64,000 bases of DNA from Escherichia coli (GTDB taxonomy: Bacteria > Pseudomonadota > Gammaproteobacteria > Enterobacterales > Enterobacteriaceae): the NCBI RefSeq assembly GCF_001677475.2, contig NZ_CP015229.1. One strand, 5' to 3'. Positions 1 to 3,000 of the stretch are shown here, in pieces. The position numbers are program-made. Position 1 is the stretch's first letter. The number at the start of each line of letters is the position of its first letter.

Positions 1-3000
1 CAGATAATCTTCTGTACTTCAATACAGACGGGAATGCCTCACTGTCTCTGCTGTCAGAGAAGGGCCGCGCATTACTGGCGCATGACACGGCTGAAGCCAT
101 GCGCACGGAGCTTGAGCTGAACGCGGCTGCGACGATGGAACCCCAGAGTGATATCCGTGACCGCACACCGGGCAGGCTGGCCCTGTCCGGGATGTATGGG
201 TTTGGACAGGCATTCACCAGAGCCGAAGCTCTGTCATTTAACGGACAGGCTGATTTCGTTATATGGCTGCAGACAGTCACACCGGGGCGTTATGCGGTCA
301 GTATTGCGGACTCTTCCACGCTGCTGAAGGGGACCACGAAATTTAACGGTATCATTGATGTGATGTGGTCACCGTCTGATAACGACGAATCAGACACGGC
401 GCGTAAATTCAAAACGCTGCTGTACTACAACCAGTATTACGAGGATGAGCACAACATACATTGCATGCGTTATCATTACAGTGATAACACCTGGACCGCA
501 ACATCAAACATGATTGTGTATGACGGCAACTCCCTGGCATATCTGATGTCCTCAACCGCCGGTAATGGTCCGTTCTCATATTACCAATACCCGGCACTTG
601 GCGTGCCGATTATGGCGGTATATCAGGGAGAAAGTTTTGGTGAAAATGCTTCTCTGGGACTCGGTGATACTGTGCCGGGTTCCCGTCTTGGTCCTCTGGC
701 CATGAGTGCACCGGTTAGTGATACAGGGACATACGCATCCTCACCGCAGGTTGTGATTGGCGGTGCCGGTGAATACAACTTCCCCGGTCGTTACACGGCG
801 CTTTCGGGCCTGGGTAACAATTATGGTACTCAGCGTGGCTTTATCGGTCTTTTTGTACGCATTGAGTAATGAGGAAATCAGGCATGAAAATCAGAGCGGT
901 GAAAGGTATCAGAAACGCACATTATCTTGAAAATGGTGCGGTTGACTGCGAGGTGTTATTTGAAGGTGAAACGGAGTTCGTCCTGTATACCGCCATACAG
1001 GATGATATGGCCCCGACAGGCCAGCATGTCTGGCAGGAGCTGCAAAGCGGGAAATGGGGCGAAATCGCCCCGTTCACCGTCACGCCGGAACTTATTGCAG
1101 CGGCAAAGGATGCCAAAAGGCGGGAAATTGAGGCATGGCGAGACAGTCAGGAAAACGTTGAGTTTATTTTCACGTTTGATGGCCGTCGTTTTGATGGCGG
1201 AAAAACCTCGCAGTCACGCCTTGCGCCCGTGGTTGCAACAGCGCAGGCCGGACTGCTTCCGGATGGTTTTTTCTGGACTGATGCGGATAATAACAACGTC
1301 ATACTGACCAGGGAGAAACTTATTGCGCTGAACGATGCCATGATGGTGGCCATGGTGGCGGAGGGCTTTAAAATCCACGAACGTCAGCGCGAGATGAAGG
1401 AACAACTGAATAATCTGAATGACTTGGCTTCAATTCGAGCGTTTGGCATTTGCTAATAGATTAGCTGCGACTAGCGTTCGAAGCTCTCCCCGACAATTGG
1501 AATTGTCGGGGAGAGGCTGCAGGGCAAGGGTTATTAATTGAGTCTATGCATAACAACTTTTAACAAAAAGCCTAAAAAAACATTCTCCAAAACTAGAACG
1601 TAACTGGTTGATTTTGATGAAACCCACAACATTGTTGCTTTAAACAATCAAGATATTAAAAAGTGCACTTATTTCATTGAATATAAAGGATTAATCACCT
1701 ATTTCGCTCACCTTCTTATTCAGCAAACGAGAAGCGCGCCAGTAAACCAGCAACATCAGGCCCATTACGATAGTCAGCGTAATGCTGGTGGCTGCACCAA
1801 ATGGCCAGTCACGAATATTGAGGAACTGTACCTTGATGACGTTACCGATCAGCAGGTTTTTCGCACCGCCCATCAGGTCGGACACATAGAACAGGCCCAT
1901 CGCTGGCAGCATTACCAGCAGACATCCGGCAATAATTCCTGGCATCGTCAGTGGAATAATGATGCGGATAAAAGTCTGTAACTTGCTGGCACCGAGATCG
2001 CGCGCCGCCTCAAGCAACGGCTTATCCAGTTTTTCGATACTGGAGTACAGCGGCATCACCATAAACGGCAGCAGAATGTAAACCAGACCGATAATCACCG
2101 CACTGGGCGTGAACATGATACGAATTGGTGTGTCGATAACGCCCAGCCAGAGCAAAAACTCGTTGAGATAGCCTTTGGTGCTGAGGAAAATTTTCAGCCC
2201 GTAGATGCGAATCAGTGAGTTGGTCCAGAAGGGAACAATCAGCAGAAACAGCAGCAGCGGACGCACCTTGTGTGGCAGCTTCGCCAGAAACCAGGCAAAT
2301 GGATAGCCCAGCACCAGGCAGGCGAGGGTGGCGATCAGCGCCATATTCAGCGAGTGCAATAGCACTTCAAAATAGAGCGGATCGAGCAGACGCGTGTAGT
2401 TATCCAGCGTAAAGACCATTTTGACGAAACTGGCGTCGTCGCGGGTCAAAAAGCTGGTGCCAATGATCATCAGGTTGGGCAGAAAGACAAACAACACAAG
2501 CCAACCGACAATAGTGACAATCACTACATTCTGGAACTTACTTGTGTTCTTCATCAGCCAGTACGACCTCCCAGCTTTCTACCCAATTAATGGCCATTTT
2601 TTGGTCGAGAGAGTGGTCAAAGTCAGGATCGTCTTCATTGAAGAATTCGCTGACCATCACCATCTTGCCATTTTCCAGTTCAACAACCGACTCCAGCGTC
2701 ATGCCTTTGTAGTTACGCTCGCGAACGTAACCAATCAGCCCTTCAGCGTGGTTGTCGTCGTTAATCTCTTCAACACGTAAGTCTTCCGGGCGCAGCAGAA
2801 CATGCAGTTTTTGCCCCGGTTCAACGGCGAAGTTAACGTAGATATTACATTCGCGGCCTTCAACGTTGGCGCGTACGCGCTGCTCGTCGAGACGTTCGAT
2901 AACAGTGGCGTTAAACATATTGATTTCGCCAATGAACCCGGCAACAAACAGGTTTTTCGGCTCTTCGTAGATTTCACGCGGCGTGCCGTCTTGCTCAATG

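Follow-up and report, generated by a model that had tools for sequence, protein, structure and literature searches.

A stretch of Escherichia coli DNA 64 kb in length (hereafter the window) carries, in the gap between the end of a phage gene module and the 3' end of potB, a long inverted repeat, which an earlier note had read as a 32-bp perfect palindrome and for which it had offered a phage transcription terminator, an operator or a part of the attachment site as potential identities. The question raised by this locus is to which genetic element the repeat belongs and what function, if any, it is likely to perform.

The inverted repeat and its prophage context

Strictly, the segment 1484-1515 is an inverted repeat whose 15-nt arms flank a GG that is not palindromic. 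Its arms, CTCTCCCCGACAATT (1484-1498) and AATTGTCGGGGAGAG (1501-1515), are 100% complementary, as the earlier note had it, but the GG between them is not symmetric, so that the 32-mer shows 2 mismatches against its own reverse strand and falls short of a perfect 32-bp palindrome. For RNA from either strand of this segment, the predicted fold is a stem of 14 bp closed by a 4-nt loop, with an energy of about -27 kcal/mol (z of about -4 against shuffles). A matching hairpin was obtained in none of 100 dinucleotide shuffles, and in 30 first-order Markov resamples of the window perfect arms reached a length of 9-11 nt at most; chance does not explain the repeat. It is the longest perfect hairpin of the window, and neither the 32-mer nor a single arm has a second copy anywhere in the 64 kb.

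The second-longest perfect inverted repeat of the window, at 16988-17025 in the bluR-bluF region, has 14-nt arms (ATACTTTGTACAAT...ATTGTACAAAGTAT) separated by a 10-nt loop and is conserved in about 5000 E. coli genomes. Apart from the C0299 sRNA at 36596-36674 (Rfam RF00119, 111.9 bits), no Rfam family attains its gathering score anywhere in the window, and tRNA genes were not detected.

The first 1456 positions of the window constitute, on the + strand, the end of a lambdoid late operon, in which a tail fibre gene is followed by the last late gene, a DUF4376 tail-fibre-assembly-like gene (884-1456, +; identified from the ORF list and the annotation of a 98%-identical locus in E. coli GB089). 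The hairpin starts 27 nt past the stop codon of this gene and ends 193 nt before the core of an att site. On its other side potB occupies 1691-2554 on the - strand, as judged from ORFs, the GB089 annotation and the att alignment, and beyond it lie potA and then pepT. Alignment of attL, attR and the empty K-12 site revealed a core, CACCTTCTTATTCA, common to all three, the attR copy of which is situated at 1709-1722 inside the last potB codons. The earlier placement of the repeat between the phage module and potB is correct as to coordinates; since the junction of phage and host lies at this core, within the potB 3' end, the repeat itself is phage DNA, part of a lambdoid prophage that has integrated there. 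The last six potB codons including the stop (SEIGD*, 1691-1708) are also phage-derived, and PotB of the lysogen ends in ...KKVSEIGD in place of ...KKVELE. The potC/potB region is a known prophage site that is used by Sp6 of O157 Sakai and has also been reported for Stx phages (PMC8190617, PMC8065619).

E. coli GB089 combines a 98%-identical junction with a complete prophage, and displays the order potD-potC-attL-int(-)-xis ... Q, lysis, head, tail genes(+) ... tail fibre-DUF4376-hairpin-attR-potB-potA. This gene order implies that late transcription and transcription of the int/att region converge on the hairpin. The prophage also splits the potABCD operon, with potC and its ribosome-binding site coming to lie directly downstream of int, about 48 kb from potAB (GB089 locus L009, 6156-8235); potCD would, in this arrangement, need to be transcribed from the int side of the phage.

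An attP reconstructed from the P arm of the window and the P' arm of GB089 has a lambda-like layout. The P arm contains a candidate arm-type Int-binding site, TCTCCAAAAC (1584-1593, +), which was recognized from motif positions and the attL sequence, falls within a block that is invariant across 14 relatives, and recurs as three tandem copies in the GB089 P' arm beside int (+60 to +95). Pattern matching also recovered two sites that resemble the IHF consensus, at 1601-1613 (-) and 1646-1658 (+) of the P arm. By their sequences, the former motifs would be bound by Int and the latter by IHF. Counted from the core, the hairpin occupies -225 to -194; some 70 bp separate it from the outermost candidate arm-type motif, which places it outside the attP span bounded by such sites (core 1709-1722, outermost TCTCCAAAAC 1584-1593, hairpin end 1515). 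The suggestion that it is a part of the attachment site is thus not borne out, though the hairpin does travel with the att region.

Distribution and variation among potB prophages

Searches with 104 nt and 48 nt around the hairpin recovered matches in 21-22 of 5426 complete E. coli genomes, each of which has one such locus, always between the DUF4376 gene and potB. The comparison with a prophage-free potB region that had been recommended at the outset showed that the potC-potB sequence of K-12 has no such hairpin. Homologues of the P arm (1575-1708) are far more widespread, being found in 981 of the 5426 genomes and nearly all at potB. When the segment 1380-1700 was compared by blastn with 50,697 phage records, the sole match was one Stx1a phage, a partial match confined to the P arm, with no lambda being recovered; the version of the hairpin seen in the window (type A below) is absent from the deposited phage genomes of this collection. 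A degenerate P-arm motif searched against genome contigs yielded chance matches only, in Flavobacteria and others, and scans of viral and metagenome sequences contributed additional copies that are mostly of one variant (type C), with little new diversity.

The relatives sampled comprised genomes with P-arm homologues, one Stx1a-converting phage record, IMG/VR contigs and metagenome contigs. All of the potB-prophage relatives that were examined have a hairpin in the corresponding position (types A, A', B, C and E; badly degraded in type D), and the genes upstream of it vary among them. Type A, to which the copies of the window and of GB089 belong, was found in 14 genomes. Type A' (CTCTCCCCGACTATTGGAATAGTCGGGGAGAG) is distinguished from it by a compensated A-T to T-A swap that leaves the repeat perfect, while the stem of type B (GCCCTCCCGAC-loop-GGTTGGGAGGGC) is shorter by one pair, encloses a loop of 7-9 nt and, when read on the + strand, includes two G-U pairs. 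The commonest variant is type C (CCTCCCCGACCATTCAGATAGTCGGGGAGG), which occurs in 5 of the 7 genomes sampled from a low-identity class of 941 and accounts for most metagenome copies. Type D is the degraded version, from a prophage remnant beside an IS66 element, and type E, from strain 1303, displays a stem followed by TTTTT on the + strand. Type F comes from a P2-like phage (gpX, gpD) with a homologous P arm and a different core, in which an unrelated hairpin directly follows the gpD stop; with T6 on its - strand and a U-rich tail on its + strand, this hairpin is a bidirectional terminator.

The P2-like phage (L019; IMGVR_UViG_2778261068_000003, 3494-5262) adjoins nadE, and the core-proximal part of its lambdoid-type P arm codes for a ...KVSEIDD C-terminus on the - strand. 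The presence of a homologous P arm in such a phage indicates that the att/int module is common to different phage types.

Comparison of types A and C shows that the hairpin stays with the att region as the upstream gene changes: in type C its place is taken by the 3' fragment of a different tail-fibre-assembly gene, along with inserted morons. In the type C prophages (L010-L015, about 900-1090 per locus) this fragment immediately precedes the hairpin, and the cargo found upstream of it includes a SAM-dependent methyltransferase, a DinI remnant and, in one strain, the T3SS effector espM2. The fragment-hairpin-att block of type C appears to represent an old, fixed right end. The recombinant type A' combines a hairpin that has remained next to the DUF4376 gene upstream of it with a core-proximal P arm that is C-like. 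In loci of the attP form the order is hairpin - P arm - core - P' arm - int(-). An attP-type arrangement, with P arm and core followed directly by P' arm and int, was observed in L013 (NZ_CP074900.1, strain 10_253), L018 and L023; its occurrence inside a chromosome implies tandem prophages at the same site.

Comparison of the window with the Stx1a phage EH2115 sets the hairpin apart from its surroundings. Identity is 72% over 1476-1517, a region comprising the hairpin and its TGAAG flank, as against 22% in the 36 nt to the left and 33% in the 58 nt to the right, and rightward of the hairpin it recovers only at the arm-type block (76%). The short conserved flank, GTTCGAAG (1476-1483), which was delineated from alignments with relatives directly 5' of the stem on the + strand, forms part of this island of conservation and is TGAAG-like in types B, C and D and CGAAG in A and A'. 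Judged from these sequences, the hairpin is a discrete conserved element.

In an alignment of the seven distinct hairpin variants, 6 of the 14 stem pairs display changes on both sides when read on the + strand, and 5 of 14 when read on the - strand. Standard pairs occupy 86% (+) and 88% (-) of the cells, as opposed to 37-57% when the partners are slid by 1-3 columns, and the observed pairing values were reached in 0-1 of 500 column shuffles, the covariation deriving from few independent lineages, about six. The compensated changes, together with the island of 72% identity, favour a structured RNA over a protein-binding palindrome. Template-switch (quasi-palindrome) mutation can keep perfect palindromes perfect without selection, and a part of the apparent compensation may be mutational and have arisen by this route.

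Potential function of the hairpin

Among the three identities originally proposed, that of a phage transcription terminator is closest to the evidence. The part of it that stands is a covarying stem-loop 27 nt past the last late gene; what is missing is the U-tract. A terminator scan of 1300-1800 recovered 0 terminator-like sites, and there is no T-run after the stem on either strand (tails GCUGCAGGG on + and CUUCGAACG on -). Types A', B and C likewise have no U-tract on either strand, and T-runs are seen on the + strand in type E and on both strands in type F. A canonical intrinsic terminator, which the position of the stem-loop just past the stop codon would fit, was accordingly rejected for the window copy in view of the missing U-run. 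A promoter scan found no promoter-like site within 1457-1700, the sole one detected being inside the DUF4376 gene, and an Rfam search of 1300-1800 with E-values up to 10 recovered chance matches only (eukaryotic miRNA etc.), far under the gathering scores.

As to the strand on which the hairpin is used, folding energy favours the + strand by 4-6 kcal/mol in types B and E and the - strand by 2-4 kcal/mol in type C, and is equal for both strands in type A. The variant types conflict both in G-U asymmetry and in per-strand folding energy. Downstream of the stem C exceeds G on both strands alike, which, as a proxy for a rut site, goes no further than being compatible with one. The simplest reading of these signals is that the hairpin is used on both strands.

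The hairpin is most likely a terminator-like element of RNA 3' ends, which is an ordinary kind of feature. More specifically, we favour, with a probability of roughly one half, a stem-loop without a U-tract that would act in the RNA by blocking exonucleases, positioned where late and leftward transcription meet. It sits in a short non-coding gap between two transcription units running head-on. The first is the late (tail-fibre) operon, transcribed rightward on the + strand; the second runs leftward across att on the - strand, and would give rise to the int transcript while the phage is circular and to the potA-potB transcript once it has integrated. Since the DNA is nearly palindromic, the RNAs of both strands would form the same stem of about -27 kcal/mol, and since this stem has no U-tract, it most likely would not by itself bring about release of RNA polymerase. 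Rather, it might define and protect the steady-state 3' end, with transcripts that end further downstream, through Rho or by run-off, being trimmed back to the stem by 3'-to-5' exonucleases. Such behaviour has been described for stem-loops that lack a U-tract and lie at the ends of E. coli transcripts dependent on Rho (Dar & Sorek 2018, PMC6061677). Several points stand against this reading: the strand signals of types B and E conflict with that of type C, the arrangement CCCCGAC-N10-GTCGGGG, with a spacer of fixed length in four types, could also fit a dimeric DNA-binding protein, the variants represent few lineages, and template-switch mutation may account for a part of the compensation. Late transcription of lambdoid phages is Q-antiterminated, and the late operon of lambda ends at tandem terminators beyond J; such antitermination makes a polymerase-stopping role for the hairpin doubtful.

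The main rival, which we regard as possible and not as probable, is a retroregulator of int of the lambda sib/tI type. In the circular phage the int transcript would cross attP into the hairpin, where RNase III might cut it and exonucleases might then destroy the int mRNA; integration would place the hairpin at the far end of the prophage, and int would thus perhaps escape this control after induction. Retroregulation by sib is established for lambda (PMC5300877, PMC2951348), and the geometry of the present locus is reminiscent of it: the hairpin is found on the att side opposite to int, 193-225 nt from the core, and is parted from int in the prophage, while the lambda tI hairpin is situated about 150-190 nt from its own core with a similar stability (-24 kcal/mol). 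The order from hairpin to int(-) in the attP-form loci, the better folding of the commonest variant, type C, on the int-sense strand, and the movement of the hairpin with the att region even where the upstream gene differs would all agree with such a role. However, the window copy has no tI-like U-run and could therefore not reproduce the lambda scheme of a short terminated versus a longer read-through stem. Furthermore, RNase III accommodates about 22 bp (PMC6212723), whereas the perfect stem here is just 14 bp and its predicted extensions are weak and not conserved. The blastn search of 1380-1700 detected no similarity to lambda, the opposite strand gives the better fold in types B and E, and in the recombinant A' the hairpin has gone with the tail-fibre-assembly gene, its core-proximal P arm being that of type C. 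As neither the U-run nor the sequence homology of tI/sib is found, we do not file the hairpin as a sib element.

A tentative extension of the sib reading, to which we likewise attach a low probability, would give the hairpin two roles: in the free phage it would be the sib counterpart of the large family of Sp6/potB-integrating phages, where it would either destabilise the int transcript or terminate it, and in the lysogen it would provide a surrogate 3' end for the potA-potB transcript. As part of the same improbable two-role reading, the hairpin and the replacement potB C-terminus could be viewed as a phage-supplied 'operon repair kit' after the cut from potCD. In the lysogen the - strand RNA at the hairpin would be the truncated potAB transcript, and the possible second role as its 3' end is speculative.

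It is unlikely that the palindrome is without function, i.e. a hitch-hiking quasi-palindrome between modules whose symmetry is maintained by template-switch or by arm-to-arm gene conversion. The inconsistent strand signals, the lack of a U-tract and of an Rfam family, and the badly degraded type D in a remnant beside an IS element would agree with such a reading. It would, however, be hard put to account for an island of 72% identity between flanks of 22-33%, for a hairpin that outlasts turnover of the outer and inner stem and change in loop length in at least five homologous variants, or for the non-homologous hairpin at the same position in the P2-like phage.

More doubtful still is a duplex DNA site for a dimeric protein, either an operator, as the earlier note had also considered, or an accessory or architectural recombination site, e.g. 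one composed of inverted weak arm-type Int sites. Types A, A', C and E all keep the half-sites CCCCGAC and GTCGGGG at a distance of 10 bp, with an intervening sequence that varies, and TCTCCCCGAC, from the arm, matches the candidate arm-type site TCTCCAAAAC at 7 of 10 positions, a weak resemblance. Yet type B alters both the spacing (N9) and a half-site (GTTGGG) and retains pairing by means of G-U, which is meaningless in duplex DNA, and the spacer is itself self-complementary, with a compensated swap between A and A' for which a protein touching the half-sites only would have no need. The operator in particular fares poorly, there being no promoter-like site near, and relatives keeping the complementarity as they alter half-site and spacing; as for a recombination site, the palindrome is situated some 70 bp beyond the last of the arm-type sites. 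Finally, a REP/BIME-type chromosomal repeat unrelated to the junction, which the earlier note had named as the finding that would undo its proposal, can be dismissed with near certainty, as beyond being a GC-rich extragenic palindrome the hairpin has nothing in common with elements present in many copies per chromosome: genome counts place it at a single locus in 21-22 of 5426 E. coli genomes, always in the DUF4376-potB gap, and it is unique in the window and absent from K-12.

Implications and comparison with known systems

Taken alone the hairpin matters little. It is a conserved, covarying stem-loop that bounds the att module on the outer side in a prophage family very common in E. coli, one with P-arm homologues in 981 of 5426 complete genomes that takes in Stx1a-converting phages and the Sp6 site of O157. 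In annotation the hairpin can be used as a landmark for the right end of potB prophages. Should it turn out to control int in the manner of sib, or to form the 3' end of the potAB mRNA that the insertion truncates, the range of retroregulation would be widened beyond lambda, and the case would illustrate how an operon-splitting phage limits the cost to its host.

Of the systems with which it can be compared, REP/BIME elements are similar in being GC-rich palindromes outside genes that could stabilise upstream mRNA, whereas the hairpin is single-copy, phage-borne and rare among E. coli genomes. With canonical Rho-independent terminators it shares a GC-rich stem-loop directly downstream of an operon and, in relatives E and F, a T-run, but a U-tract is missing from both strands of the window copy and of types A', B and C. 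The likeness to lambda tI/sib lies in a location beyond attP opposite int, a comparable distance from the core and stem stability, and separation from int by integration. In contrast to the U6 of lambda there is no U-run here, nor is there detectable sequence similarity; the strand preference varies among the variants, and the 14 perfect pairs have predicted extensions that are weak and non-conserved, next to the about 22 bp that RNase III accommodates. The closest parallel to the favoured reading is offered by the U-tract-less protective stem-loops (PMC6061677), which likewise combine a stable stem-loop soon after a stop codon with no U-rich stretch and with C exceeding G downstream. Compared with these, the hairpin described here is phage-borne, nearly palindromic and placed between convergent units, and could thereby serve both strands.
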